Assembly (NCBI GenBank): GCA_016716565.1
Contig: JADJWC010000002.1
Coordinates: 109,858 to 173,857, forward strand
Direction of reading: 5' to 3'
Source: a bacterium
GTDB taxonomy: Bacteria; Bacteroidota; Ignavibacteria; Ignavibacteriales; Ignavibacteriaceae
DNA: 64,000 nt
Below, in pieces: positions 6,082 to 34,899 of this stretch; positions within the stretch are counted from its first letter, which is position 1, and each line of letters opens with the position of its first letter. Under the pieces are notes generated by a model. The model did no database searches and had not been told where the DNA came from. It saw nothing but the letters and a program-made list of their open reading frames with translations. The position numbers and the translations under genes are program-made.

Positions 6082-9000
6082 TCACTTTTTCGATTCATCC
6101 GGAGCTGGTGGTACAACGATCTTCTTCCTCGGATTGTTTTTCAACTCTTCCAGTAAGACTTCCACCGCTTTTTCAAGTGAAGGATCTCTTCCCTGAACAA
6201 CCAGGTCAGCACGGTCATCGATTTCTATATCAGGATAAACACCTTCATTTTCAATAGCCCAGTTGCCATTAGTATCTAAAAATCTAAAAACAGGAATATT
6301 AATGTTGCCGCCATCCATCAAATTAGGATTTCCGGAAATTCCGATAAGTCCTCCCCAGGTTCTGGTACCGATTATTTTTCCCAATCCTTCTTTTCTGAAA
6401 TAATACGGAAATGCATCACCGCCGGAACTTGAATAACCATTTATGAGGCAAGCTTTTGGTCCGTCATGAACAAATCCCGGAACAGGAATTGGTTCAGTCC
6501 CGCGTCGTGTCCAATAGTTTAAAGTCTTTCTTGAAACTAATTCAATCATTCTATCCGGCACGAATCCTCCGCCGTTGTAACGGTCGTCTATAATTAAAGC
6601 TTCTTTGTTTGTCTGAGGATAAAAATATTTGAAGAGTTCTCTGTTCCCTTCTGTTGCGGTGTTTGGAATGTGAATGTATCCAATTTTTCCGCCTGATAAT
6701 TCATCAACCATTTTCATGCGTGAATTTACCCAATCAAGATAAAACAGGTTTTGTTCGCTCTTGACCGGTTTTACTTTTTCTTCTCTTGCACCTTCTTTCG
6801 ATGGTTTAGAATTAACAAGAAGTGTTACAACTTTATCTGCTTTGTTTTCAAGATATTTGTACGGATTTATGTCAGCAGACAACTCGTGACCATCGATAGC
6901 AATTATAAAATCTCCTTCTTTTACACTAACTCCATACTCTGTTAACGGTGATCGAAAATCTGAATGCCAGTTTTCACCTTTGAATATTTTTGTGATCTTA
7001 TAGAAACCTGATGGATCAGCTTCAAGTTCGCAGCCAAGTAATCCACCATCTATTCTTTTAACTCTTTCAAAATCTCCCCAATCAACATAAGTGTGCCCCG
7101 CACTCAACTCACCAACCAGTTCGCCAAAAATGTAATCAAGATCCATTCTGTGAGAAAGATATGGAACAAGCTGTCCATATTTCTCCCGCATTTTGTCCCA
7201 ATCATTACCATGCATTTTTTCATCATAGAACCAGTCACGCAATAAACGCCAACCGTCAACATATATCTGTTTCCATTCTTCTTTTGGGAAAATTTTTATT
7301 TCCAGATTACTAAGATCTATTCTGCCATCCGTATTCTTCTGGTTTTCTTTAACGTCAACAATTCCATATTCACCAGCTTTGGCATACAATAATTTTTTAC
7401 TATTGGATGAAACAACATAGTTACCAATATCTTCAAGCACTGTTACTTCTTTTTCATCTTCCTGGTTAAAGAATTTTAATTTTGAACCTGAGTCATCGCG
7501 ATAGATATAGAGAACTCCTTTTTCTGCCTGATGAAGCGAACCATAATTTCCTGATTTTCCGGGAAGGACTGCAATTCGATTTTCAAAATTTTCAGGATCG
7601 ATTTTTACAACTACTTTTCCGGTATCTTTTTTATTATTCTGTTCACCATTTGTTTTTTCATCATCACTTTTTGGCTGGAATAATGCCGGGACATCATTAT
7701 TCAGAGCAGCAGAATAAACTCGTGTCGGATTCGTATAAACATAATTGAATTCCCAGTTGCTGAATTTCAGATTAAAATCACGGTTTGAGAAGAAATACAG
7801 ATAATTTCCATCTCTGCTGAAAACAGGATTGAATTCATTTGTCAGATCGCTTGTAAGCTGCATAGTTTTTTTCTGGTCAATTGAATATACCCATATCGAA
7901 CTCATACGTGATTCACTTCCCTTTGTGTATGTCAGCCACTTACTGTCCGGTGACCATTGATAGTCTCTGATGTCATTATAATTGCTTTGATCAACTTCAG
8001 TAGTGCTTCCTGTATTTACATCGACATACCACAACTTCTGATTCTTATCTGAATATGCAAGCTTTTTGCTGTCAGGTGACCAAACAGGAGCAAATCGCCA
8101 GATAGTTCCGTCCTTTGTAATTTGTTTTTCTTCACCTTTGCCATCACTTGCTTTCATAAAAATTTCGTACTCGCCCTTACGGTCAGAAAGATATGCGATC
8201 CATTTTCCATCAGGAGACCATACAGGATCAATTTCTCTTATACCGGGAGTTTGCGTGATGTTTACTATCTCACCATTCTCTGCAGGAACAGTAAATACAT
8301 CTCCTCTTGCTTCAAGTAAGGCTCTTTTTCCGGTTGGAGAAATCTCAAACCAGTTTACCTGACCCTTTAAATTTTTTATATAAGGAACAGTTCCCGGAAA
8401 ATCCCCAAAAACCTTTATTTGGACTTGTTCATTTTTATTTGTTGATGGATCATATTTGTAAATATATCCCCCGTTTTCATAAACAATTTTATCATCGCCT
8501 GCACTTGGCCATAGAACATCGTAATTATCAAAATCGCTGACAGCAGAAGTTTGTTTTGAAGAAAGATCGTAAGAATAAAGATTAAGAGTACCAGTTCTGT
8601 CAGATGTAAAATAAATTTTTTCTCCAACCCACATCGGCTGATTATCAGTTCCAAGCCAGTCGGTGATTTTTTCTGTGGTATTATTTTTTAAGTCGTAAAT
8701 CCAAACATCCTGTGCACGACCGCCGCGGTATCTTTTCCAAGTTCGCCATTCTCTTTCAATCGGAGTGTAAACCATTTTTGTTCCATCAGGAGATAACATT
8801 CCTCCTCCGCCTTCAGGAATTTGTAATGGAGTTTCAAATCCACCATCAACCGGAACGAGAAAATATTTTCCCATTCTTTCACCCCAGGGAAGTCGGTTCC
8901 CACGAAAAAGAACATTCTTTCCATCCGGTGTCCAGTCGAGAACCTGGTAATCAAATCCACCGCGCGGCGGCATAACTCCAACATCATTGTAGTAAGTTAA

Positions 9001-9477: not shown

Positions 9478-12400
9478 TTATTTCATCAGGATCATCTTCT
9501 TTGAATCGACAAAGTCTCCAGCGTTGATTTTATATATGTACACTCCCGATGCAATTGTTGAAGCATCGAAGCTGACCTCATAATTTCCTGCTGGTTTATC
9601 TTCATTTACTAACTTTTTAACTTCTCGCCCCAGCACATCGTAAACTGTAATATTTACAAAATTATTTTGTGCAATTGAATACTTTATTCTTGTTACAGGG
9701 TTGAAAGGATTTGGATAGTTCTGCTGTAGTGAAAATTCAATAGGTGCATTGTCACCGCTTACCATAAATTTGGTAATATTTGGATTATCTATAACAGTAT
9801 TTTCACCAGGCTTAAGTTTCGTATTAATCACTTTCCCGCTCTCATCCATCAGTTTGATATCAATTTCTTCTACACTTACTGTAACCGGATAGACTACGCC
9901 ACTCATTTCAATAGTCTGGATTGCACTGTTTATATCTTCTGCTATTCTTCCACTTGAGAACCTGAGATCATACATTCCAGATGGTGGTGCTGGAGGTAGT
10001 TCGTAATGATTTAAATCAACCTGGCCTTTTACTGAGTATAATGTGTAGCTTACTCCGGCTGCATCTGTAATTATGATTCTTCCCCAATCTTCCGGGAACC
10101 ATTCTACTGATTCTGTACCTTTAGCCAAGGCTTCAGGTATTATTATCTGACCTGCACCACTGAGCTTTATCCAGTATCCATAGCCAGGATCTATTGATGT
10201 TGCTGTCAAATATCCACCTGAATACTTGTATATCGGTCCAGTCTGAAGTCCTGGTGGATTAGTAGTTATTAGTGATGCTGTTGCAGAGATTTCATATCCT
10301 CCAAATAAATTCCAGCCTGCACTTGCATTTATTGGATCGTGAGGTACTATCTGTATTCCTTCTATCGGCCATTCATCTCCGCTATTGTACGTTCTGGCTC
10401 CAGTATGCTTCATCCAATATCCGATTCCAGGGACTGCATCGGTAACGGGCAGATATCCTCCTGCATACTTAAATACATTAGCACTTTGATCTCTATATGC
10501 CCACCAGGTATTTACATTTTGATCTGGTGAGTTTAATCCAGGTATTGAAACGATGTTCCAACCATTGCTTATGTTTACTGATAATTGAAATGTTGTTGGT
10601 CGTTCATATTTAATATAAAGTGAAGTGATGGATGGATCTGTTATTGTATAACTGCTTTGATTTCTCATATCCACATTAATAATATTTCCATTTATTACAT
10701 CCGTTAATAGAAAAGTGCCTGAGGGAAATCCTAGAGTATCCCAAATGAATGTCATTGGATAACCAGAAGGGCCTGGTTGAAATGCCAGTGTCCATGTTAC
10801 TTCTGTTTCTGTGCTGTCTCTTATATCAATTAAAGAACTTACTTCAGGAACTGTTGGTAAAATAAATCTCGCATCAAAAGTACCAACAGGTGGTACGGGC
10901 GGTAAAATTTGTTCTCCAAAAGTTGTATCTATTCCATTTGTAGCAGTAGGTCTTTGCCCAAATTGTAACTCAATTTCTGAATCAGTTCCACCCACATCCC
11001 TCAGTGCTATTGGTATTACGTAATCTCCTATAATTGCCGGTGGCCTTACTTCAACTGTTAAAGTACATTCGACTGCTGCTGCATAATCATCTACTATAGT
11101 AAATACTATTTCGTGAAAACCAATATTTGCTGGAGTCGGAGTCCATGAGAATTCACTGCTTACAGGATTTCCGGTGATAGGCAGTGGAGGATTCATTGAT
11201 GAAAGAAATGGTAAGCCGCTTACGTCAAGCACAACAAAATCTCCCGGGTCAGGGTCTCCTGCCTGGACTGTAAATGTAATTGGAGTTCCTGCTATAACAG
11301 GTAATATCTCTCCACAAGCTGGTGTTTCTCCATAGAATATCGGTATTGTATTAGAAACTGCATCTCTATATAAAACTAAATTAGGATGATGCTCTCCGCT
11401 AGCTTGAAAGAAATCTCCACCAAGATACAAGTCTGTTCCAACCCTGGTAATTGCTTTAACATAACTACCGTTGAAATCAAGATCCCAGTCTGGATCAACA
11501 TTACCAGTAGTATTATTCAATTTTGCAACCTTGTTTATTGAGCCGCCACCAATTGTTGAAAAATTTCCACCGACATAAACATAGTTCCCAGCACTAAGAA
11601 TGCTTTTGACATCACTGTTTGACCCTGGAGTCCAGTCAGCATCGAGTTCAGAACCAGTTTCATCTACCTCTAACTTTGCAAGACGGTTTCTGGTTTCACT
11701 TTCAATAGTTGTAAAAACTCCACCAACATAAATATGATCTTCACTATTGGCTATAGTGTTAACTGTTCCATTTGCATCAGCTTTCCAGCCTGTTACAACT
11801 TCTCCATCAGAATTTAATTTTGCTAAACGTTGTCTTGTAGTTGGAGTTATACCGATTGATGTAAAACTTCCACCTACATAAATATAGTCTCCTCTTACTG
11901 CAATTGTCTGAACAGTATTATTTGGATTTGGCTTCCAGGTAGAATTAATATCCCCAGTAGAAATGTCAAACTTCGCAAGACGGTCAATATCCGAATAGCC
12001 TCCTATTGAGGTAAATGCACCGCCAACAAACATATCATTTCCACTTATAGCCATTGTGTAAACTGTACCTCCGGTTGGGTTTGGATTCCAGGATAGAGCT
12101 GCACCGGTTGTAGGATCTAACTGGGCAAGTACCCTCCTTGGCTCACCACCTACTGTTGTAAAACCACCACAGATATAAATGTCACTTCCATTCAATACTA
12201 TTCCTTCAATCTGATAATCAGTATCAGGATCCCAGGTTTCATCTAAAGTACCACCATGTGCACCACCAAGTCTAAATAATCTAGCAATATTATTTCTTGG
12301 TTCACCGCCAATTGTTACAAAACTTCCACCAGCATATATGTTATCTGCATCTGCAGCAATCTCTTTGACTTCTCCGCTTGCATTAGGATTCCAGTCTAGA

Positions 12401-27760: not shown

Positions 27761-27807
27761 AAAAAAATCTGACCAGCAAAAATCAATCTCGGGATTTTCT
27801 GGTCAGA
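27761..27807 (-). terminator. rho-independent terminator at the end of the rtc/tRNA transcription unit
   Basis: Hairpin tctgaccag...ctggtcaga. A7 on the plus strand gives U7 after the hairpin on the minus strand, immediately downstream of the rtcB stop. Confidence 0.5.
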
Positions 27808-27851
27808 ATTTGTCTTCGATTAAGTATTCGGATTTAACCCAAATTATTATT

Positions 27852-29108
27852 CTATCCTTTAACAACACCGAGTGGTCTTAGTTTAACGATAGGTTTTATA
27901 AGATCTAATTCAGATTGAATTACCTCATCAATGTTTTTATAGGCAAGAGGTGACTCACCAAGATCAAACAATTCCCCACCATTTATTTTCTTTCCAAACT
28001 TTTTGAGTTTACCCCATCGATCATATACAACGTCACCCATTGCTTTATCGCATTCTTTTGCAGTAAGATTTCTGCAAGCATCCATTCTTCCCATTTTTCT
28101 GCCGGCACCGTGAGAACAGGATTGAAAAGATTCTTCATTACCTAATCCTTCAACAATGTAAGAAGAAGTCCCCATCGAACCGGGAATTATTCCCTTCTCA
28201 CCTTTCTTAGCAGATGTTGCACCTTTCCGATGAATCCAAACGGATTTTTCAAAATGATTTTCCAATGCTGCGTAATTATGATGGATATTTGTTTCTTCAA
28301 GAAAATTTACATCACCAAGATTTATTAGAATGGCTTGTTTAAATTCTTCCATCATTAATCTTCTGTTTTCTCTTGCATATTCCAGAGCAAAATTCATATC
28401 TCTAATGTAATCATTTCCTTCATCCATCTCTGTTCTAAAAAATGCAAGATCTTTATCCGGTAGTTCATCATTGTATTTATCATTTATTTCCTGAGCAAGT
28501 TTATGATAATATGAGGCGATCCTATTACCAATATTTCTTGAACCTGAATGTAGCATCAGCCAGAGGTATCCATCCTGTGAAATTTGCATTTCAATAAAAT
28601 GATTTCCGCCGCCTAAAGTTCCAAGATTTTTGAATGCTAATGTCCAGGTAGCTTTATCCAACCATGCTGGCAATTTTGGATTCTTGAAGTCATCAACTTC
28701 TTCACCAATACCAAGAGTTTTTAAGTAAGCAGGAAACCCATCCCATGAGTGTGGATGTTTGTGTGCATTTCCTTCACCGACCGGTACATTTGCTTTTATA
28801 TCATTAAGGATTTTTCTAATTAAAGATTTATCAGTTAAATCATTTGCAGGAAAATTGGTTTTAACTGCACCCATTCCACATCCAATATCAACACCGACTG
28901 CATTCGGTATGATTGCATTTTCGGTTGCAATAACTCCACCAATCGGCATTCCATATCCGACATGAGCATCGGGCATTAACGCAATATGATTTAAAGTAAC
29001 AGGATGATTAGCAAGATTTTCAGCCTGTTCAAGTGCACCTAGTTCAAGTGTTTCGCACCAGGATTTTATCGGTATTTTAAGATTTTCATCTTCTTTGATC
29101 CATTTCAT
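27852..29108 (-). CDS. rtcB: RNA-splicing ligase RtcB (3'-phosphate/5'-OH RNA ligase)
   Basis: GGGNHFIEMQ, HSGSRNIGN, SCSHGAGRKMGR motifs. Start taken at MKWIKEDE (ATG 29106-29108, RBS AGAGGA). The ORF-track extension to 29192 overlaps tRNA-Pro and is rejected. Confidence 0.9.
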   Translation of the reverse strand: MKWIKEDENLKIPIKSWCETLELGALEQAENLANHPVTLNHIALMPDAHVGYGMPIGGVIATENAIIPNAVGVDIGCGMGAVKTNFPANDLTDKSLIRKILNDIKANVPVGEGNAHKHPHSWDGFPAYLKTLGIGEEVDDFKNPKLPAWLDKATWTLAFKNLGTLGGGNHFIEMQISQDGYLWLMLHSGSRNIGNRIASYYHKLAQEINDKYNDELPDKDLAFFRTEMDEGNDYIRDMNFALEYARENRRLMMEEFKQAILINLGDVNFLEETNIHHNYAALENHFEKSVWIHRKGATSAKKGEKGIIPGSMGTSSYIVEGLGNEESFQSCSHGAGRKMGRMDACRNLTAKECDKAMGDVVYDRWGKLKKFGKKINGGELFDLGESPLAYKNIDEVIQSELDLIKPIVKLRPLGVVKG

Positions 29109-29123
29109 AGTTTTCCTCTTTAA

Positions 29124-29198
29124 TACTTTATTGTCTGTGTGGTAGGACTCGAACCTACATTTTCCCGGCTCCAAACCGGCACGGATAACCAATTCCCG
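29124..29198 (-). tRNA. tRNA-Pro (anticodon UGG)
   Basis: Hand-folded cloverleaf. Acceptor CTGTGTG/CACACAG. T-arm GTAGG-TTCGAGT-CCTAC. Anticodon loop TTTGGAG. Confidence 0.7.
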
Positions 29199-29253
29199 TC
29201 ACACACAGATATAATTTAGTAAACGTATTATCTATTAAAAATTCCAATTATAA

Positions 29254-29324
29254 AATTTTATTGCGTGACGTGTGGGATTTGAACCCCGACTCCTGATAGA
29301 CAGTCAGGTGTGTTTCCGTTACAC
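29254..29324 (-). tRNA. tRNA-Asp (anticodon GUC)
   Basis: Anticodon arm CCTGA-CTGTCTA-TCAGG. T-loop TTCAAAT. Acceptor/T-stem register is ambiguous by hand. Confidence 0.6.
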
Positions 29325-29354
29325 TACACATCACTTTTATAGATATTCTATTAA

Positions 29355-29428
29355 TATTTAATTGTCCCACCGATAGGATTCGAACCTACATCATTTCGGT
29401 TAAAAGCCGAAAGCATTGCTCCTTTATG
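29355..29428 (-). tRNA. tRNA-Lys (anticodon UUU)
   Basis: D-arm GCAT-AAAGGAGCA-ATGC. Anticodon arm TTCGG-CTTTTAA-CCGAA. T-loop TTCGAAT. Confidence 0.8.
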
Positions 29429-29442
29429 CTACGGTGGAATAA

Positions 29443-29515
29443 TGTCTTTAAGTACTCTCTGCAGGAATCGAACCCACATCTAACTGCTTAGAAGACAGCT
29501 GCATTATCCTTTATG
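29443..29515 (-). tRNA. tRNA-Arg (anticodon UCU)
   Basis: Acceptor GCTCTCT/AGAGAGT. Anticodon loop CTTCTAA. T-loop TTCGATT. Confidence 0.7.
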
Positions 29516-29520
29516 CTAAG

Positions 29521-29592
29521 AGAGCGTTGGAATCGTTATAAGGATTTGAACCTTAATCCCCCGACTCGTAAGCGGGTATCTTTTCCATTAGA
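29521..29592 (-). tRNA. tRNA-Arg (anticodon ACG)
   Basis: Acceptor GTCGTTA/TAACGAT. Anticodon loop TTACGAG. T-arm TAAGG-TTCAAAT-CCTTA. Confidence 0.7.
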
Positions 29593-29595
29593 CGA

Positions 29596-29668
29596 TAACG
29601 ACTTGAGCCAACGCAAGGATTCGAACCCTGTTCTCCGGTTTACAAAACCGGTGCATCAACCTGTAATG
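29596..29668 (-). tRNA. tRNA-Thr (anticodon UGU), aberrant acceptor stem
   Basis: Anticodon arm CCGGT-TTTGTAA-ACCGG is perfect. Acceptor 5' GCCTTCG vs 3' CGTTGGC gives two adjacent U:U mismatches. The 5' end sits inside the perfect palindrome AATGCCTTCGAAGCATT. Confidence 0.55.
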
Positions 29669-29673
29669 CTTCG

Positions 29674-29757
29674 AAGGCATTCGTACAAGTAGAAGGATTC
29701 GAACCTTCAAGCCCTCAAGGGCAGTAGTTTCTAAGACTACCGTGTATACCAATTCCA
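29674..29757 (-). tRNA. tRNA-Leu (anticodon UAG), class II with long variable arm
   Basis: Anticodon arm GTAGT-CTTAGAA-ACTAC. Variable hairpin GCCC-TTGA-GGGC. T-arm GAAGG-TTCGAAT-CCTTC. Confidence 0.8.
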
Positions 29758-29763
29758 CCATAC

Positions 29764-29835
29764 TTGCATTCAGGGTGTGAGCTAAGATTTGAACTTAGTC
29801 CTATTGGGTCACAGCCAATTATGCTGCCATTACAC
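29764..29835 (-). tRNA. tRNA-His (anticodon GUG) with G-1; acceptor has two internal mismatches
   Basis: Anticodon arm ATTGG-CTGTGAC-CCAAT. Extra 5' G pairs with C73. Acceptor 5' GTGTTTG vs 3' CTCACAC gives U:C and U:U mismatches. Confidence 0.6.
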
Positions 29836-29908
29836 CACAAACACCATAATAATGTCGTTAAAGGAAATGAATACCTATCTTAAAAATTTTTAAATCAATC
29901 TATCTAAG

Positions 29909-29982
29909 AACGATAAAGTCCTACGGGTAGGATTCGCACCCACTATCTCCCGGATATAAGCCGGGTGCATTTACTAATTATG
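29909..29982 (-). tRNA. tRNA-Ile (anticodon UAU), atypical: no GG in D-loop, T-loop TGCGAAT
   Basis: Acceptor CCTACGG/CCGTAGG is perfect. Anticodon arm CCCGG-CTTATAT-CCGGG. D-loop AATTAGTAA. Confidence 0.6.
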
Positions 29983-29983
29983 C

Positions 29984-30055
29984 TTCCGTAGGGTAGCGGG
30001 TATTGGATTCGAACCAATGACCTTCAGCTTATGAAACTGATGAGCTGCCGCTGCT
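29984..30055 (-). tRNA. tRNA-Met or tRNA-Ile2 (anticodon CAU; elongator type)
   Basis: Acceptor GGCGGGT/ACCCGCT. D-arm GAGC-AGCGGCA-GCTC. Anticodon loop TTCATAA. Lacks the initiator features (C1:A72 mismatch, GGG/CCC anticodon stem). Confidence 0.75.
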
Positions 30056-30065
30056 CAAACCCGCC

Positions 30066-30140
30066 AAATGATTAGTGGAAAGGGTAGGAATCGAACCCAC
30101 GCAGTCAACGGGCTTCAACCGCTTGCTCTACCTGCTGAGC
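30066..30140 (-). tRNA. tRNA-Phe (anticodon GAA)
   Basis: Acceptor GGAAAGG/CCTTTCC. D-arm GCTC-AGCAGGTAGA-GC. Anticodon loop TTGAAGC. Confidence 0.85.
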
Positions 30141-30147
30141 TACCTTT

Positions 30148-30219
30148 CCATATTTTGCAGTCCCGGCAGGATTTGAACCTACATCTTTGGGTTCAAAGCC
30201 CAATGTGCTTACCATTGCA
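30148..30219 (-). tRNA. tRNA-Gln (anticodon UUG)
   Basis: Anticodon arm TTGGG-CTTTGAA-CCCAA. D-arm GTGC-AATGGTAA-GCAC. T-loop TTCAAAT. Confidence 0.8.
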
Positions 30220-30223
30220 CCAC

Positions 30224-30299
30224 AGAACTATTGAGTCGGTAAAGGGAGTTGAACCCTCACTTCAAGTTTGGAAGACTTACGTGCTGGTTCCGTTAAACA
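30224..30299 (-). tRNA. tRNA-Gly (anticodon UCC), enlarged D-loop
   Basis: Acceptor GTCGGTA/TACCGAC is perfect. Anticodon loop CTTCCAA. D-region is 21 nt. Confidence 0.7.
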
Positions 30300-30322
30300 C
30301 TATACCGACGGATTGAAAAATT

Positions 30323-30393
30323 GATTCTCTGCTGAACAGGCAGGACTCGAACCTGCATCATTCCGGTTAACAGCCGGGCGCTTCACCATTGAG
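30323..30393 (-). tRNA. tRNA-Asn (anticodon GUU)
   Basis: Acceptor TGAACAG/CTGTTCA is perfect. Anticodon loop CTGTTAA. T-arm GCAGG-TTCGAGT-CCTGC. Confidence 0.75.
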
Positions 30394-30414
30394 CTACTGT
30401 TCAATTAATTTTAT

Positions 30415-31446
30415 TCAAGCTTTATCACCAATTCTTATCTGATATTGCTTCTCATTAATTTTATCGACGCTGATATTTATTGCTAAAAATTTTTTCACAA
30501 CCTCAATGATTGTCATTGTATGTAAAGTTGGTTCAGTCGTAATAAAACTTCCGCCACCAGCAAGTGCCATCGGGATTATCAATTGATCAGCCAGATATTT
30601 ATACACCGGAACATCAGCGTCCACATATTCAGAATATTCTCTTAATACATCATCGATTACATTTTTCAACTTATAATTTTTTCTTCCGAATCCGGTAAAG
30701 GTTTCTGTTGAATTATCATTTTCATCGATGAGAATGATAACATTTCCCGGTCCTGGCGAATCAACCATTTTTGCTATGCAGTTTACTTCATTCCAACCCA
30801 GCTTTTTTTGAATGATCTTCATCTCACTTTTACCAATGCTTTCCGGAATTAGTGAGGAGTATGCAATTGCTTTCCTGTTCAGCTGGGATCCTTTTTCAAT
30901 GATTTCGATCTGGTTCAGTTCTTTAACAGGTTTAACATTTACATCAATCTTTCCACCTCCTACCGGAAAGAATCCGAATTTCCCGATATTAATATTTACT
31001 ACAGGTCCCATTTTTCTCAACTGGTTAAAAAAAGAATAATTCAGAAAATCTACTGGCGGAGAAAATTCATTATGGGTTCCACCGCCTAAACTAATGTTCG
31101 ATTCACCATTCGCAAGCATAAGAACGGGAACAACAGTTTGAAGCACAAGAGTTGTACTTCCTGCAGTTCCAATATCAAAATTGTAATTACCGGATTTAAT
31201 TTTTGCGGGGTCAAAGTATAATTTCAAAGAACTAATTTCAGCACCTCGAACTCGAGCATCACAAATTTCTGCGGCAGCTTTTACTGCAGTGAGATGTTGC
31301 CTCATTAAGCCGGGCTTTTTTCTTCCGGCTCTTATATTCTTAATAACTACCGGAAATTGAGTATACATTGATAAGGAAAGAGACGACCTGAGAATCTGGC
31401 CGCCTCCTTCTCCGAATGAACCATCTATTTCAATGAGCTTTTTCAT
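30415..31446 (-). CDS. rtcA: RNA 3'-terminal phosphate cyclase RtcA
   Basis: N-terminal IDGSFGEGGGQILRSSLSLS...IRAGRKKPGLMRQHL and C-terminal LADQLIIPMALAGGG match the RtcA family end to end. Confidence 0.88.
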   Translation of the reverse strand: MKKLIEIDGSFGEGGGQILRSSLSLSMYTQFPVVIKNIRAGRKKPGLMRQHLTAVKAAAEICDARVRGAEISSLKLYFDPAKIKSGNYNFDIGTAGSTTLVLQTVVPVLMLANGESNISLGGGTHNEFSPPVDFLNYSFFNQLRKMGPVVNINIGKFGFFPVGGGKIDVNVKPVKELNQIEIIEKGSQLNRKAIAYSSLIPESIGKSEMKIIQKKLGWNEVNCIAKMVDSPGPGNVIILIDENDNSTETFTGFGRKNYKLKNVIDDVLREYSEYVDADVPVYKYLADQLIIPMALAGGGSFITTEPTLHTMTIIEVVKKFLAINISVDKINEKQYQIRIGDKA

Positions 31447-31448
31447 AC

Positions 31449-32552
31449 TTAAAGTAAGTTAACAATTTTGTCAGTTAACCCTTTATCACCAAGCATAATT
31501 TTCAGGTCAGTTCTTGCAGCGATCTTTTCAAGAACTTCCAGCTCTTTGAGCTTCATAAGTACTGGATTGCTCTCGAGCATTTTAGCAGTATTAGCCTGGT
31601 TTCTCATTGCGGCAGTCTCCTCTCTTCTGGAGATGAGATTTGCCTCTGCTTCTTTTTTAGCAAGGATAACTTTGTTCAGTATCTCTTTCATATCACCAGG
31701 AAGAATTATATCCCTGATTCCATGACTCAGAACCTCAATACCGTACTTAATCATTCTTGCTGCTAGTCTTTCCTCAAGCTCTTTCGCAACAGAGTCCTTT
31801 TCAGCAAGTATCGCTTCAAGTTCTCTTGTTCCGATTACTTCTCTAAGAACAAGCTGAGCTTCTCTGTAGAGTGCCTGAGTAGAATCTTCAACCATTGATA
31901 CAGATTTGTATGCATCTACAATTCTGTAGTTAACAAGGGTATTTAGTCTTAAAGAAACTTTATCAGCAGTCATAATTTCTTGTCCGGAAATATCGCTTGA
32001 CTTTACTCTCAGATCTACCTGATAAAGTTTTACTTTGGAAATACCTATCCAGAATGCATATCTGCCTGGTTTGAGATTCCCTATGAAGTTTCCATTCTCG
32101 AAGTACAGACCAATATGGTTGTCTTCTACAATGAATTCATTTAGTACAGCTTTCGATGCACCTGCATCCATAATTATATCCAGTTTTTCATGGACAAATT
32201 GTGGGCTTTTAACATCGATCACTTCCACTAAAACTTCACGACCAACTTTCCAAAGAGCATAAATACCAGAGTAAAGAATTCTGTCAAATCTTCCGTCAAT
32301 CCAAATGACTGCACGTTGATTATCTTTTAGATCAATTACTTCTAATTCATCTTTATTAATTTTATCGGACTTGATTATTGATTCGAGTTCCTTATGGACA
32401 AGCCACGCCTCTTTTACAGAAACAATATCAAGTGCTTCATCTTTAAATGGATCTGTAAACCAGTATGAACCTTCGTTGAGTATTTCAACAAATTGTTCAT
32501 CCACAAAGTACAGTCCTCTTTCGTGTGCAAGGATTCTTCTTTTACCAAACAT
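31449..32552 (-). CDS. cytoplasmic SPFH/band-7 (slipin-like) domain protein with an unrecognised ~170-aa N-terminal domain
   Basis: C-terminal half matches stomatin/HflC-like SPFH (IRDIILPGDMKE, AEANLISRREETAAMRNQANTAKML). No TM segment. Stop is 3 nt before the rtcA start. Confidence 0.6.
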   Translation of the reverse strand: MFGKRRILAHERGLYFVDEQFVEILNEGSYWFTDPFKDEALDIVSVKEAWLVHKELESIIKSDKINKDELEVIDLKDNQRAVIWIDGRFDRILYSGIYALWKVGREVLVEVIDVKSPQFVHEKLDIIMDAGASKAVLNEFIVEDNHIGLYFENGNFIGNLKPGRYAFWIGISKVKLYQVDLRVKSSDISGQEIMTADKVSLRLNTLVNYRIVDAYKSVSMVEDSTQALYREAQLVLREVIGTRELEAILAEKDSVAKELEERLAARMIKYGIEVLSHGIRDIILPGDMKEILNKVILAKKEAEANLISRREETAAMRNQANTAKMLESNPVLMKLKELEVLEKIAARTDLKIMLGDKGLTDKIVNLL

Positions 32553-32639
32553 GACTTATCTCCTTTTTATTTTTGTTAATCAGTTAATTAAAAGGGCTAA
32601 TTGAAGAAAGACAACTAACTCAACACATTTCTTCTGCGG

Positions 32640-32813
32640 AGCGTTACTTAAGCAATTCAAAGTTGTATCGTATCTGCAAACTCAAATTCAACAACACAAC
32701 TTTTAAAGAGCGGTATCCGCACGCTGCAAGGCAGAATACTAATGCTGCAAACAGAATTATGCCTCCCCAATAATTTCTGTTTGCTGCTAAATCGCTCATC
32801 CTTCCTCAAAAAG
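32640..32813 (-). CDS. small ORF (57 aa) with a hydrophobic core, between the tRNA-like gene and the SPFH gene
   Basis: MSDLAANRNYWGGIILFAALVFCLAACGYRSLKVVLLNLSLQIRYNFELLK*. Preceded by GAGGAAGG. Below the ORF-track size cutoff. Speculative. Confidence 0.2.
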
Positions 32814-32838
32814 CCAAAGAACAGTTCACCTTTACAGG

Positions 32839-32914
32839 GTGCATGAGCGGGAATCGAACCCGCGACCTATAGATCATTAGTCTATTGCTCTTCCAATTGA
32901 GCTATCATTGTGCA
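32839..32914 (-). ncRNA. aberrant tRNA-like RNA (tRNA mimic or pseudogene). Canonical D- and T-arms, acceptor stem with a 3-nt bulge, anticodon loop CUAAUGA (formally AAU with G37).
   Basis: D-arm TAGCTCAATTGGAAGAGCA. T-arm GCGGG-TTCGATT-CCCGC. 3' TCATGCA-C. 5' TGCA[CAA]TGA. Sits ~100 nt downstream of a TGGCAC -24 element. Confidence 0.5.
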
Positions 32915-33020
32915 GTTTCAACATCGTCTTTAGAACCCGCAACCGGAACATTAAATGATAATTGATTACTCAAACCAGATAATGCCGACCGGTCAAATAT
33001 CAATTCTGCATAAATTATAA

Positions 33021-33037
33021 GCCAATGAGTGTGCCAG
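33021..33037 (-). promoter_or_regulatory. candidate sigma54 (-24/-12) promoter for the minus-strand rtc unit; imperfect -12 element
   Basis: Minus-strand TGGCAC-ACTCA-TTGGC (consensus TGGCAC-N5-TTGCA). Divergent from rtcR, as at the E. coli rtcBA-rtcR locus. A GACCGGTC palindrome lies 25 nt downstream. Confidence 0.35.
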
Positions 33038-33163
33038 CACTTCGGCTGAAAACTTAACTGGTTTATTTTTAATGACTTATGGGAATTTTTGACCTAACTG
33101 CTTGACGACATTATTAATAATCACTATAATTAACTATAATATTTTAGATTTAAAGATAAAACT

Positions 33164-33346
33164 ATGAAGAACATACTTTTCAGTTTGTTGGGAACAACAT
33201 TAGATAAATCTTTCAAGCAAGATAGATGGGAAAGATGGCGGCCATCCGTTGCAATTTGTCAACACGAGGATTTAATAATCGATAAATACCATTTAATTTA
33301 TCCGTCAAACCATCTTCGCCTTGCAGAGAATTATAGAGGATATTAA
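33164..33346 (+). CDS. rtcR: RtcR N-terminal segment (start of CARF domain), frame-shifted relative to the rest of rtcR
   Basis: MKNILFSLLGTTLDKSFKQDRWERWRPSVAICQHEDLIIDKYHLIY matches the E. coli RtcR N-terminus (GTVLD...QRWSKWRPTLCLCQQESLVIDRLELLH). Confidence 0.8.
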   Translation: MKNILFSLLGTTLDKSFKQDRWERWRPSVAICQHEDLIIDKYHLIYPSNHLRLAENYRGY

Positions 33347-34751
33347 AATTGTATCTCCTGAAACAGAGGTAATTCCACATGAAATTGATTTTAAAGATCC
33401 ATGGGATTTTGAAGAAGTGTACACTGGTCTTCTTGATTTCCTCGAGCACTTTGATTTTCATAAAGTGGAGGATCGATATCTTTTCAATATTACTACCGGT
33501 ACCCACGTTGCTCAAATATGTATTTACCTTCTAACTGAATCACGAAGATTTCCAGGTAATATTATACAAACATCTCCTGCTCACGGAAATGCTGCAGGAA
33601 CTTATTCTATCATAGATTTAGATTTATCGAAGTATGATAAAATAGCAGCACGATTTGCGAAAGAAATAAAAGATGATATCGCATTTCTAAAATCCGGGAT
33701 TGAAACAAAAAATAAAAAGTTTAATGAACTTATTGATAGAATAGAATTAGTCGCCTTAAGAACTAAGGATCCAATTTTGCTGACCGGTCCGACTGGAGCT
33801 GGAAAATCCTTCCTTGCAAGAAGAATTTATGAACTTAAAAAGTTGAAAGCTTCCGTCAAAGGTCAATTTGTTGAAATAGACTGCGGAACAATTCGCGGCG
33901 ATGCAGCTATGTCCGCTTTGTTTGGGCACAAGAAAGGTGCATTCACTGGTGCAATCAGCGACAGACCTGGTTTGTTAAAAACTGCTGATAAAGGAATTGT
34001 TTTTCTCGATGAGATTGGCGAACTCGGCCTAGACGAGCAAGTAATGCTTTTAAGAGCGATAGAAGATAAAAAGTTTTTTAGTGTGGGTGCAGACAAAGAA
34101 TCAACAAGTGATTTTCAATTGATCTGTGGAACGAACAGAAATCTTCAGCAAAGAGTAAAAGATGGATTGTTTAGAGAAGATCTACTTGCAAGAATAAACC
34201 TTTGGACATTCAATTTGCCGGGATTAAAAGATCGTCCTGAAGATATCGAACCAAATCTCGATTATGAATTAAACCGGTATGCAGATAAAACAGGTGATGT
34301 AGTGCGATTCAACAAAGAAGCACGAGATGCATTCCTGAATTTTGCAGTTTCAAAAGATGCAAAATGGCTAGCTAACTTCAGAGATTTGAATGGTGCAATC
34401 ATCAGGTTATGCACACTTGCACTTGGAGGAAGGATTACACTGGACATTCTTGAAGAAGAAATTAAAAGATTAAAATCATTATGGAAGACAGAAAAAATTG
34501 AATCTGAGGATAGGTTGATAAATAATTTTAGGCATATAATAGACATAACAAGAATCGATTTGTTTGAACAAATACAGATTGAGGGTGTTTTAAAAGTCTG
34601 TCGAGAATCAAAAAGTCTATCTGATGCAGGAAGAAAACTGTTTGCCATTTCACGCCTATCAAAGGCATCTTCAAATGATAGTGATAGATTAAAAAAATTT
34701 TTAGTCAAGTACGGATTGACCTGGGAAATGACCCAAAACAATTATATCTGA
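33321..34751 (+). CDS. rtcR: RtcR, CARF-domain sigma54-dependent transcriptional activator of the rtc operon (the frame continues upstream to ~33286 as FIRQTIFALQRIIEDI...)
   Basis: SPETEV...DFKDPWDFEEVY...TGTHVAQICIYLL (CARF). Walker A GPTGAGKS. GAFTGA. ESKSLSDAGRKLF...LTWE C-terminus. Colinear with E. coli RtcR throughout. Confidence 0.88.
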   Translation: MQRIIEDIKIVSPETEVIPHEIDFKDPWDFEEVYTGLLDFLEHFDFHKVEDRYLFNITTGTHVAQICIYLLTESRRFPGNIIQTSPAHGNAAGTYSIIDLDLSKYDKIAARFAKEIKDDIAFLKSGIETKNKKFNELIDRIELVALRTKDPILLTGPTGAGKSFLARRIYELKKLKASVKGQFVEIDCGTIRGDAAMSALFGHKKGAFTGAISDRPGLLKTADKGIVFLDEIGELGLDEQVMLLRAIEDKKFFSVGADKESTSDFQLICGTNRNLQQRVKDGLFREDLLARINLWTFNLPGLKDRPEDIEPNLDYELNRYADKTGDVVRFNKEARDAFLNFAVSKDAKWLANFRDLNGAIIRLCTLALGGRITLDILEEEIKRLKSLWKTEKIESEDRLINNFRHIIDITRIDLFEQIQIEGVLKVCRESKSLSDAGRKLFAISRLSKASSNDSDRLKKFLVKYGLTWEMTQNNYI

Positions 34752-34785: not shown

Positions 34786-34826
34786 TTAAAAAAACCCTCA
34801 GAATTTTATCATCTTGAGGGTTTTTG
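34786..34826. terminator. bidirectional rho-independent terminator (A-run, hairpin ccctcag...cttgaggg, T-run)
   Basis: Lies between the rtcR stop and the 3' end of the convergent tRNA-Thr. Confidence 0.55.
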
Positions 34827-34899
34827 AGCTGGTGAACGGATTCGAACCGCCGACCGGCTGATTACAAATCAGCTGCTCTACCAGCTGAGCTACACCAGC
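34827..34899 (-). tRNA. tRNA-Thr (anticodon UGU), canonical
   Basis: Acceptor GCTGGTG/CACCAGC is perfect. D-arm GCTC-AGCTGGTAGA-GC. Anticodon arm GCTGA-TTTGTAA-TCAGC. T-loop TTCGAAT. Confidence 0.85.

Follow-up and report, generated by a model that had tools for sequence, protein, structure and literature searches.

In a 64,000-nt stretch of bacterial DNA (the window; assembly GCA_016716565.1, contig JADJWC010000002.1, positions 109,858-173,857 of the forward strand, with all coordinates below given as window positions), we analyzed an RNA-repair (rtc) operon that holds an array of 14 transfer RNA (tRNA) genes between its two enzyme genes, rtcA and rtcB. Read along the minus strand, a sigma54 promoter is followed by a structured leader of ~470 nt with a tRNA-like module, a gene for an SPFH protein, rtcA, the 14 tRNAs, rtcB and a terminator, and the regulator gene rtcR is divergent. 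The best explanation of the locus is an SPFH/tRNA-like-leader subtype of the RtcR/sigma54 RNA-repair operon with an L-type tRNA array (L-array) built in between rtcA and rtcB. Because the array lies in an operon under a tRNA-damage sensor, this arrangement suggests that the cell re-supplies as well as mends cut tRNAs. The RtcR/sigma54/tRNA-like/SPFH/RtcB backbone is already known from Burkholderia and Pseudomonas, and RtcB-linked L-arrays are known from cyanobacteria; what appears to be new is an L-type array held inside an RtcR-governed operon. In full-text literature searches, no account was found of such an operon with a tRNA array inside it, in line with the first-pass annotation of this DNA, which was aware of none in standard descriptions of the rtc locus.

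A tRNA array between rtcA and rtcB

Protein genes were identified with Pfam and NCBIfam, and tRNAs with ARAGORN and Rfam; loci of relatives are cited by number (L003 and so on). The operon comprises the following features:

33021-33037, minus strand: sigma54 -24/-12 promoter, CTGGCAC-ACTCA-TTGGC, read from the sequence
32553-33010, minus strand: structured 5' leader RNA of ~460-470 nt (5' domain, tRNA-like module, small hairpin, large 3' domain), from alignment and RNAalifold
32843-32908, minus strand: tRNA-like module with D, anticodon and T arms in normal order and no conserved acceptor stem (Rfam tRNA, 56.1 bits, model positions 4-67)
31449-32552, minus strand: SPFH/Band-7 (stomatin-type) protein of 367 aa (PF01145, E 7e-30)
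30415-31446, minus strand: rtcA, RNA 3'-terminal phosphate cyclase (PF01137; equivalog NF003246, 381.5 bits against a cutoff of 352)
29133-30403, minus strand: array of 14 tRNAs, remnant of a 24-gene array (ARAGORN and Rfam agree on all 14)
29845-29917, minus strand: AT-rich filler of 73 nt in the slot of the relatives' tRNA-Tyr, from the array alignment; also in L007
29209-29262, minus strand: 54-nt spacer with a remnant of the 5' part of a tRNA-Glu, from the array alignment
27852-29108, minus strand: rtcB, 3'-phosphate/2',3'-cyclic-phosphate RNA ligase (PF01139, E 2e-107, full-length match 28-418)
27761-27807, minus strand: intrinsic terminator 3' of rtcB (hairpin of -28.3 kcal/mol, z = -3.98, then U7)

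The gene identities, the gene order, the terminator, the divergent CARF-sigma54 regulator and the 14 tRNAs with their order and isotypes had all been proposed from the letters alone and are borne out here. The SPFH gene, rtcA and rtcB are each complete and uninterrupted, and the RtcB translation displays the motifs GGGNHFIE, HSGSRN and SCSHGAGR. Packing is as tight as first described, although both distances given for it were off: 11 nt, not 21, lie between the rtcA stop and tRNA-Asn, and 24 nt, not 15, between tRNA-Pro and the rtcB ATG, which is preceded by a Shine-Dalgarno sequence, AGAGGA. A single transcript is suggested by three features: no operon-strand terminator was found inside the operon; internal sigma70-like matches occur at chance level (18 against 17.4 expected, with a scan consensus that is not of the Bacteroidota type), including two of 9/12 each in the 54-nt spacer, again at chance frequency; and only 24 nt separate tRNA-Pro from rtcB. 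The same layout was found in independent NCBI, ENA, JGI and Logan assemblies, and the arrangement in the window is therefore no assembly artefact.

Within the array, 14 genes occupy 1271 nt, with spacers of 2-13 nt and three longer ones, in the order Asn-GTT, Gly-TCC, Gln-TTG, Phe-GAA, Met-CAT, Ile-TAT, His-GTG, Leu-TAG, Thr-TGT, Arg-ACG, Arg-TCT, Lys-TTT, Asp-GTC, Pro-TGG; their Rfam tRNA scores range from 33.8 bits (Pro) to 70.5 bits. The tRNA-Ile(UAU) (29918-29992, minus strand) is present in every array and also stands first in several of the distant arrays discussed below. The T-loop sequence is TGCGAAT or TGCAATT; its position 55, a U in nearly all tRNAs, is a G. A tRNA-Ile with this anticodon bypasses the need for lysidine modification. 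An L-array, or tRNA array unit, is defined by at least 20 tRNA genes (Tran 2016), and our test also used at least 2 tRNA genes per kb and a non-periodic arrangement. By this measure the window's array, with 14 genes, is below L-array size; it has L-array density and is non-periodic, with no repeating unit beyond common T-arm similarity. Its G+C content is 43%, against 37% for the operon's coding sequences, tRNAs being generally richer in G+C.

The array is a conserved feature of this operon in related bacteria. An RtcA search yielded a clade of 23 at 62-84% identity, for several of which the genomic context was fetched; further relatives came from scanning metagenomes with an SPFH alignment. 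When rtcA-rtcB spacing was compared among these relatives, as the first-pass annotation had proposed, tRNAs were found packed into the slot in all nine loci with DNA reaching past rtcA (L003-L008, L010, L011 and L018), the first tRNA 7-25 nt past rtcA and the last 24-60 nt ahead of rtcB. Outside these nine, a further contig (P0005) has an rtcA-rtcB gap of 1225 bp. Clade loci lie in at least three neighbourhoods, marked by an OmpA/TSP3 gene, by a Fer4 gene with feoAB, and by WCX/ARPP-1 genes, and an outgroup RtcA (52% identical) is encoded by a solitary gene without tRNAs. Because it is conserved across the clade, the finding is, on comparative sequence evidence, better supported than a view of the single sequence could make it. 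Short-read contigs of three relatives (L002, L009 and L014) stop at or shortly past rtcA, a hint that assemblies tend to break at the array and that arrays may be under-reported in metagenomes.

The fullest arrays, in L005 and L006, were established with ARAGORN, Rfam and direct reading. They hold 24 tRNAs for 19 amino acids, with spacers of 2-9 nt, a single tRNA per four-codon box, U34 in most, and neither a Cys tRNA nor an obvious initiator. Their first half runs Asn, Trp, Gly, Gln, Phe, Met, Ile(UAU), Tyr, His, Leu(UAG), Thr(UGU), Arg(ACG/UCG), and their second half Arg(UCU), Leu(UAA), Leu(CAA), Lys, Ile(GAU), Ser(UGA), Val(UAC), Ala(UGC), Ser(GCU), Asp, Glu, Pro. The arrays of L003-L006 and L010 are collinear and count 21-24 genes, those of L007 and L008 count 12, and that of the window 14. 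Aligned with these, the window's array is a trimmed derivative of an ancestral 24-gene array, from which ten genes were lost through five deletions (Trp; Tyr; both short Leu; the Ile(GAU)-Ser-Val-Ala-Ser block; and the 3' part of Glu), three of them common to L007 and L008. The earlier proposal that the array's composition nearly reproduces the known targets of anticodon nucleases does not survive this comparison: the set in the window is the remainder of a near-complete array after five deletions, and tRNA-Tyr, a classic anticodon-nuclease target, is among the losses.

Deletions within arrays arise by recombination at the common T-loop sequence GGTTCGAATCC, which leaves chimeric tRNAs. L007 carries such a chimera of a Thr 5' part and an Arg(ACG) 3' part (8872-8953), and L004 one of Leu(UAA) and Leu(CAA) (~12097-12171). 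Other irregular genes include a tRNA-Asn with a hairpin insertion of ~22 nt in its T arm, which ARAGORN misses (L018, ~1640-1725), and the tRNAs with the Leu anticodons UAA and CAA (L003, 12085-12238; L006, 3304-3457), which are 75-76 nt long and lack a long variable arm, whereas Leu(UAG) has one. The amino-acid identity of the UAA and CAA tRNAs is uncertain because this arm, characteristic of bacterial tRNA-Leu, is missing.

Selection has acted on the retained tRNAs. In a comparison of eight arrays, standard pairs fill 97.9% of the 3516 pair cells, and the cloverleaves contain 31 double-sided covarying pairs, against 11.3 ± 2.3 in shuffles (0 of 500 reached 31) and 4-10 in slid controls, most structures having been derived from the same sequences as were tested. 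As compensatory pairs exceed both the shuffled and the slid controls, the cloverleaves appear to be maintained by selection. Acceptor stems co-vary as well, and the anticodon in each array slot is constant across loci.

The array's tRNAs appear to be additional to those of the cell. Its tRNA-Thr(UGU) scores 47.3 bits, against 70.1 bits for a canonical tRNA-Thr(UGU) 4.4 kb away, and the two are identical at 48 of 74 nt (65%). The evidence for redundancy is direct for Thr(UGU) only; for the other array tRNAs it is implied by the variable gene content (12-24) among relatives. The window's array has no tRNA for Trp, Tyr, Val, Ala, Ser, Glu or Cys, so these must be encoded elsewhere in the genome, and, judged by its gene content, the array cannot be the cell's sole tRNA set. 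A genomic island at the neighbouring tRNA-Thr was considered and rejected: the window contains no att-like direct repeat and no integrase gene.

The leader, the promoters and the regulator

Upstream of the SPFH gene, the leader has a mean column identity of 81% in a four-locus alignment and 71% in an 11-locus alignment, above the expectation from protein conservation. RNAalifold gives a structure of 134 pairs (95.6% paired), and 24 double-sided covarying pairs were counted, against 11.6 ± 2.0 in shuffles (0 of 500 reached 24) and 4-10 in slid controls. An Rfam search of the leader at E values up to 10 matched tRNA as the sole family. What had been annotated as a tRNA-like gene does have its tRNA match (model positions 4-67), but it is part of this large structured leader rather than a stand-alone gene. 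It recurs in L003, L004 and L005.

The anticodon loop of the module (32870-32876, minus strand) reads C-U-N-N-U-R-A, with C32, U33, U36, R37 and A38 constant. Positions 34-35 are AA, AG, GT, CA or GA across ten loci (the window, L003, L004, L005, L007, L009, L010, L014, L016 and L017), and L010 and L011 carry a 25-nt insertion in the loop. To judge from the alignment, positions 34-35 look free of constraint; this is no proof of diversifying selection, because neutral sites are saturated between loci. Identity of the module with a bacterial Y RNA (YrlA/YrlB) was rejected: the operon has no Rsr/TROVE gene, the arms are unpermuted, and no Y-RNA match was obtained at E values up to 10. We likewise rejected a small gene in the leader. 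The open reading frame (ORF) first reported there as 57 aa long is in fact 51 aa (32644-32799, minus strand); its start and frame are unconserved, it is interrupted by indels that are not multiples of 3, and it has no Pfam or NCBIfam match. Since the region is base-paired in the leader structure and the ORF is unconserved, it is not a gene.

The candidate sigma54 promoter of the first-pass annotation gains support from the relatives, where TGGCAC-N5-TTG is kept in all nine aligned loci while the flanks and the sequence upstream of it have diverged. On the other side of this promoter, the features are as follows:

33102-33130, plus strand: candidate sigma70-like promoter of rtcR, TTGACG-17-TATAAT (best consensus match in the region, 11/12; consensus match only)
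33164-33346, plus strand: rtcR 5' fragment (CARF N-terminus; RtcR profile positions 2-59), with a premature stop after a frameshift (PF06956, NF038308)
33321-34751, plus strand: rtcR remainder in the +1 frame (rest of CARF, sigma54-interaction AAA+ domain, lid/HTH; NF038308, PF00158)
34826-34899, minus strand: canonical tRNA-Thr(UGU) outside the operon (ARAGORN, Rfam)

The rtcR gene as a whole spans 33164-34751 on the plus strand, divergent from the operon, and its remainder scores 691 bits with the NF038308 RtcR equivalog over profile positions 57-529, above the cutoff of 650, and matches the Sigma54_activat domain (PF00158, E 1e-47). Overlooked at first, the gene lies in two frames in the window: a 2-nt deletion between 33325 and 33326 splits it into ORFs of 60 and 476 aa. 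In an alignment with four relatives, the window reads GCAG--AGAA where the intact orthologues of L003, L007, L009 and L016 read GCAGAAAGAG; intact RtcR orthologues of 534 aa are encoded in L003, L007 and the P0005 contig. Comparable splits, in both rtcR and the SPFH gene, occur in L004, which comes from a separate assembly. The deletion may be a real mutation or a sequencing or assembly error, and an RtcR shortened at its N-terminus might have escaped control instead of being inactive. The candidate rtcR promoter sits in an AT-rich block near the start of the gene; this block is partly conserved among relatives, and the window's version departs from the clade consensus.

Distant loci and known systems

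Also missed at first were precedents for the pairing of SPFH protein and tRNA-like module and for the link between tRNA arrays and RtcB. Within the clade the SPFH protein is 80-94% identical, a conservation exceeding that of RtcA. Its stomatin matches cover residues 148-351, its N-terminal 147 aa are unique, and it has no hydrophobic anchor; the missing anchor and the unique N-terminus fit a cytoplasmic rather than a membrane assembly. The SPFH metagenome scan added ~25 further loci (L021-L045) with full-length homologues, 34-38% identical. In nearly all of them (~20) the SPFH gene is preceded, at a distance of 120-700 nt, by a homologous tRNA or tRNA-like gene, and many of these genes are aberrant in the anticodon itself or in the size of its loop (6 or 8 nt). 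A hidden Markov model (HMM) of the clade's module scores these distant elements at E values of 1e-15 to 1e-8, far better than ordinary array tRNAs. Sequence-only HMM searches of the distant loci for the leader's long 5' and 3' domains returned none: the tRNA-like core alone is common to both, and the long domains are detectable in the window's clade alone.

RtcB adjoins SPFH in 11 of the distant loci, in none of which tblastn found RtcA or RtcR. About half of the distant SPFH-RtcB loci with enough flank carry a same-strand array of 19-24 tRNAs, usually with Ile(UAU) first. The order in L021 is array, HNH endonuclease, conserved hypothetical, tRNA-like, SPFH, RtcB, RlaP, metallophosphoesterase, and in L022 and L031 it is array-HNH-RtcB-X-tRNA-like-SPFH; the conserved hypothetical proteins of L021 (4229-5287) and L031 (4295-5254) are 37% identical. 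These and other such cassettes resemble the window in combining, on one strand, an array that includes Ile-UAU, RtcB, and a homologous tRNA-like element with SPFH. They differ in having the array upstream, an HNH gene and the conserved hypothetical, often RlaP and a metallophosphoesterase, another tRNA order, and neither RtcA nor RtcR. As array, RtcB, SPFH and tRNA-like element stand there in other orders, the same parts recur permuted.

Closer in its regulation is an unannotated stretch of a Burkholderia cenocepacia chromid (L048; NZ_CP091013.1, 2574329-2587447) with rtcR, a sigma54 promoter, two tRNA-like elements, SPFH and RtcB. Like the window, it has a divergent rtcR (51% identical), TGGCAC-N5-T(T/C)GC at the corresponding promoter position (TGGCAC-N5-TCGC in Burkholderia), and a tRNA-like element upstream of an anchorless SPFH protein of ~370 aa, followed by RtcB; unlike the window, it has neither a tRNA array nor rtcA within 5 kb. 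A 2016 abstract by Burroughs and Aravind reportedly names, among the cofactors of RNA-repair systems, modules that pair SPFH/Band-7 proteins with a 'novel tRNA-like molecule'. An SPFH protein also sits within the rtc locus of Pseudomonas aeruginosa (PaFlo8; PMC13086221).

In Salmonella, RtcR is activated by tRNA halves, and RtcR and sigma54 control rtcBA (Hughes 2020, PMC7790460). The E. coli rtcBA operon (Genschik 1998) and the Salmonella rsr-yrlBA-rtcBA operon (PMC7790460) share with the window a divergent CARF-AAA+ RtcR (frameshifted in the window), a -24/-12 promoter, and RtcB and RtcA in one unit, and the Salmonella operon also encodes tRNA-mimicking non-coding RNAs. The window departs from both in its order, SPFH-rtcA-...-rtcB rather than rtcB-rtcA, and in having no Ro60/Rsr; its clade departs from both in holding 14-24 genuine tRNAs between the enzymes and in having unpermuted tRNA-like arms, unlike YrlA.

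L-arrays spread horizontally, often have an HNH gene ahead of them, and neighbour rtcB in some cyanobacteria (PMC8421152). In Anabaena, the L-array is induced together with rtcB under translational stress (PMC8421152). The repressor TrcR, termed the functional equivalent of RtcR by its authors, governs the array and, jointly de-repressed with it under such stress, rtcB (77-fold), an HNH gene and a slipin/SPFH gene (42-fold) (PMC10272220). The cyanobacterial arrays thus resemble those of the clade in their dense, non-periodic sets of more than 20 tRNAs that are, or in the clade appear to be, supernumerary, in the link to rtcB and in the slipin/SPFH gene of the regulon (PMC8421152, PMC10272220); the role proposed in both is to sustain the tRNA pool under translational stress. 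The differences lie in organization: the Anabaena parts are scattered and governed by a repressor at sigma70 promoters, whereas the window has one predicted operon with a sigma54 promoter and a CARF sensor-activator, no HNH gene and 14 tRNA genes.

Co-transcripts of tRNAs and messenger RNA (mRNA) are known from E. coli thrU-tyrU-glyT-thrT-tufB, where, as in the window, tRNAs lie directly 5' of a protein gene, and tRNA processing frees the mRNA, as it would in the window. That unit differs in being constitutive and housekeeping, with four tRNAs, rather than a putatively stress-inducible repair operon. Phage tRNA arrays, which are thought to counter anticodon nucleases, are likewise compact and made of divergent tRNAs that plausibly replace cleaved host tRNAs; unlike theirs, the window's flanks are chromosomal and have no viral context. 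A phage origin of the array is unsupported: scans of viral contigs with the Ile-UAU array pattern, the leader pattern and the SPFH alignment were all empty.

Competing explanations and significance

We consider it probable, short of confident, that one RtcR/sigma54 operon provides damage-induced repair together with tRNA re-supply. Cut tRNAs would trigger RtcR, the sigma54 promoter would fire, and a single RtcR-driven transcript would run from ~33010 to the terminator at ~27761. RNase P and RNase Z would then excise the tRNAs, separating the SPFH-rtcA mRNA from the rtcB mRNA. RtcA and RtcB would heal and seal broken RNAs, with the SPFH protein, probably together with the tRNA-like/leader RNA, scaffolding repair, and new array tRNAs would refill or replace the damaged pool. 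Their sequences are strongly unlike the housekeeping copies, and the ancestral set was, as reconstructed, near-complete and U34-rich. This one-unit reading is strengthened because the array slot is conserved in all nine loci and the tRNAs evolve compensatorily.

Several points weigh against it. The regulator may be dead or deregulated in the window, where rtcR is frameshifted; the -12 element there is TTGG, against a consensus of TTGC, and the -12 C is replaced in most of the nine loci; and the AT-rich spacers before tRNA-His and tRNA-Pro could conceal internal promoters of an unmodelled type. Several array tRNAs are atypical, with low Rfam scores and a first base other than G, none of them encodes CCA, and tRNA-Ile(UAU) carries the unusual G55. 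The five deletions show an array losing genes in the window's lineage, which could mean relaxed selection. Because relatives were found through their rtc and SPFH proteins, array copies without rtc genes would have escaped. Finally, co-transcription, induction and aminoacylation are steps that we infer.

The locus might instead be decaying in this genome, the rtcR deletion being real, the activator lost or truncated, and the operon on its way to a pseudo-operon or deregulated. This is possible, though we think it doubtful. The split of rtcR by a deletion absent in four relatives, the loss of ten of 24 array genes and the off-consensus AT-rich block upstream of rtcR speak for it, whereas SPFH, rtcA and rtcB are intact, and the window's promoter, leader and remaining tRNAs are conserved as well as those of relatives. 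The 1.19-Mb contig suggests a long-read assembly, a type in which A/G runs often acquire short spurious indels, and comparable rtcR and SPFH splits occur in the separately assembled L004. Moreover, rtcR is intact in L007 although the array there is down to 12 tRNAs, so an array can be trimmed where the regulator has been kept. That the array is a mere passenger, a selfish or neutral L-array insertion that is transcribed from one or more promoters of its own and functionally unconnected with RNA repair, is a good deal harder to credit. L-arrays do move horizontally and occupy many contexts (PMC8421152), the window/L007 lineage shows deletion decay and chimeric tRNAs from T-loop recombination, the AT-rich spacers may hold unmodelled promoters, and the array's G+C content exceeds that of the coding sequences, though tRNAs are always richer in G+C. 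Yet the slot is kept down to 62% RtcA identity and in at least three contexts, the window has no HNH homing endonuclease, integrase or att-like repeat, and the 24 nt before rtcB are too few for that gene to have a standard promoter to itself. Structural selection acts on the tRNAs that remain, and array, RtcB, SPFH and tRNA-like element co-occur, permuted, in distant cassettes and are co-regulated in Anabaena.

Array tRNAs and tRNA-like leader might instead serve chiefly as decoys or signal amplifiers, soaking up anticodon nucleases or feeding 2',3'-cyclic-phosphate fragments to RtcR rather than translating. A sponge role was proposed for the Anabaena array, whose operonic tRNAs were seen cleaved (PMC8421152), and a competitive-inhibitor role for the tRNA-like YrlA (PMC7790460); non-canonical array tRNAs (the relatives' 'Leu' UAA/CAA without a long variable arm, Ile-UAU with G55) and a module that retains a tRNA-style anticodon loop while positions 34-35 drift would suit such roles. 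Against this, anticodons are fixed per slot, the ancestral set serves 19 amino acids and allots one tRNA to each four-codon box, as decoding selection would yield, and the acceptor stems co-vary, which a pure anticodon-loop decoy would not need. We regard a chiefly decoy role as unlikely, and it is compatible with re-supply rather than exclusive of it. An ordinary housekeeping cluster that merely lies beside the rtc genes is very improbable. Clusters of tRNAs co-transcribed with protein genes do exist, as in E. coli thrU-tyrU-glyT-thrT-tufB, but the window's array is short of seven specificities, its tRNAs score 34-70 bits and have atypical first bases, and it lies behind a sigma54 promoter, silent without an activator. 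We rejected this explanation on the variable content among loci (12, 14 and 21-24 genes) and the second, canonical tRNA-Thr(UGU) nearby, only 65% identical.

Repair with re-supply could be taken further, to an 'emergency translation kit' under a damage sensor. The ancestral operon would provide a near-complete set of low-modification and possibly nuclease-resistant tRNAs (U34-rich, with Ile-UAU instead of a lysidine-dependent tRNA) alongside ligase, cyclase and an SPFH-RNA cage, and the tRNA-like leader, free only at positions 34-35, would act as bait whose cleavage by anticodon nucleases feeds RtcR and tunes the response. As a complete scheme this is speculative, and we hold it to be unlikely.

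To our knowledge, no bacterial regulator other than RtcR is known to sense broken tRNAs, and the function of long bacterial tRNA arrays has been open since they were catalogued, with functional data from one cyanobacterium only. An array wired into an RtcR operon and kept across a clade is strong genomic evidence for a part of array tRNAs in the response to tRNA damage, and the locus makes the function of tRNA arrays directly testable. Our survey indicates that tRNA array, RtcB, SPFH protein and tRNA-like RNA travel together in many uncultured bacteria, which points to a larger putative repair-plus-replacement module. If the emergency-kit reading were true, L-arrays generally would be an arm of the RNA repair that counters ribotoxins and the collateral damage of anti-phage defence, and not codon-usage accessories.

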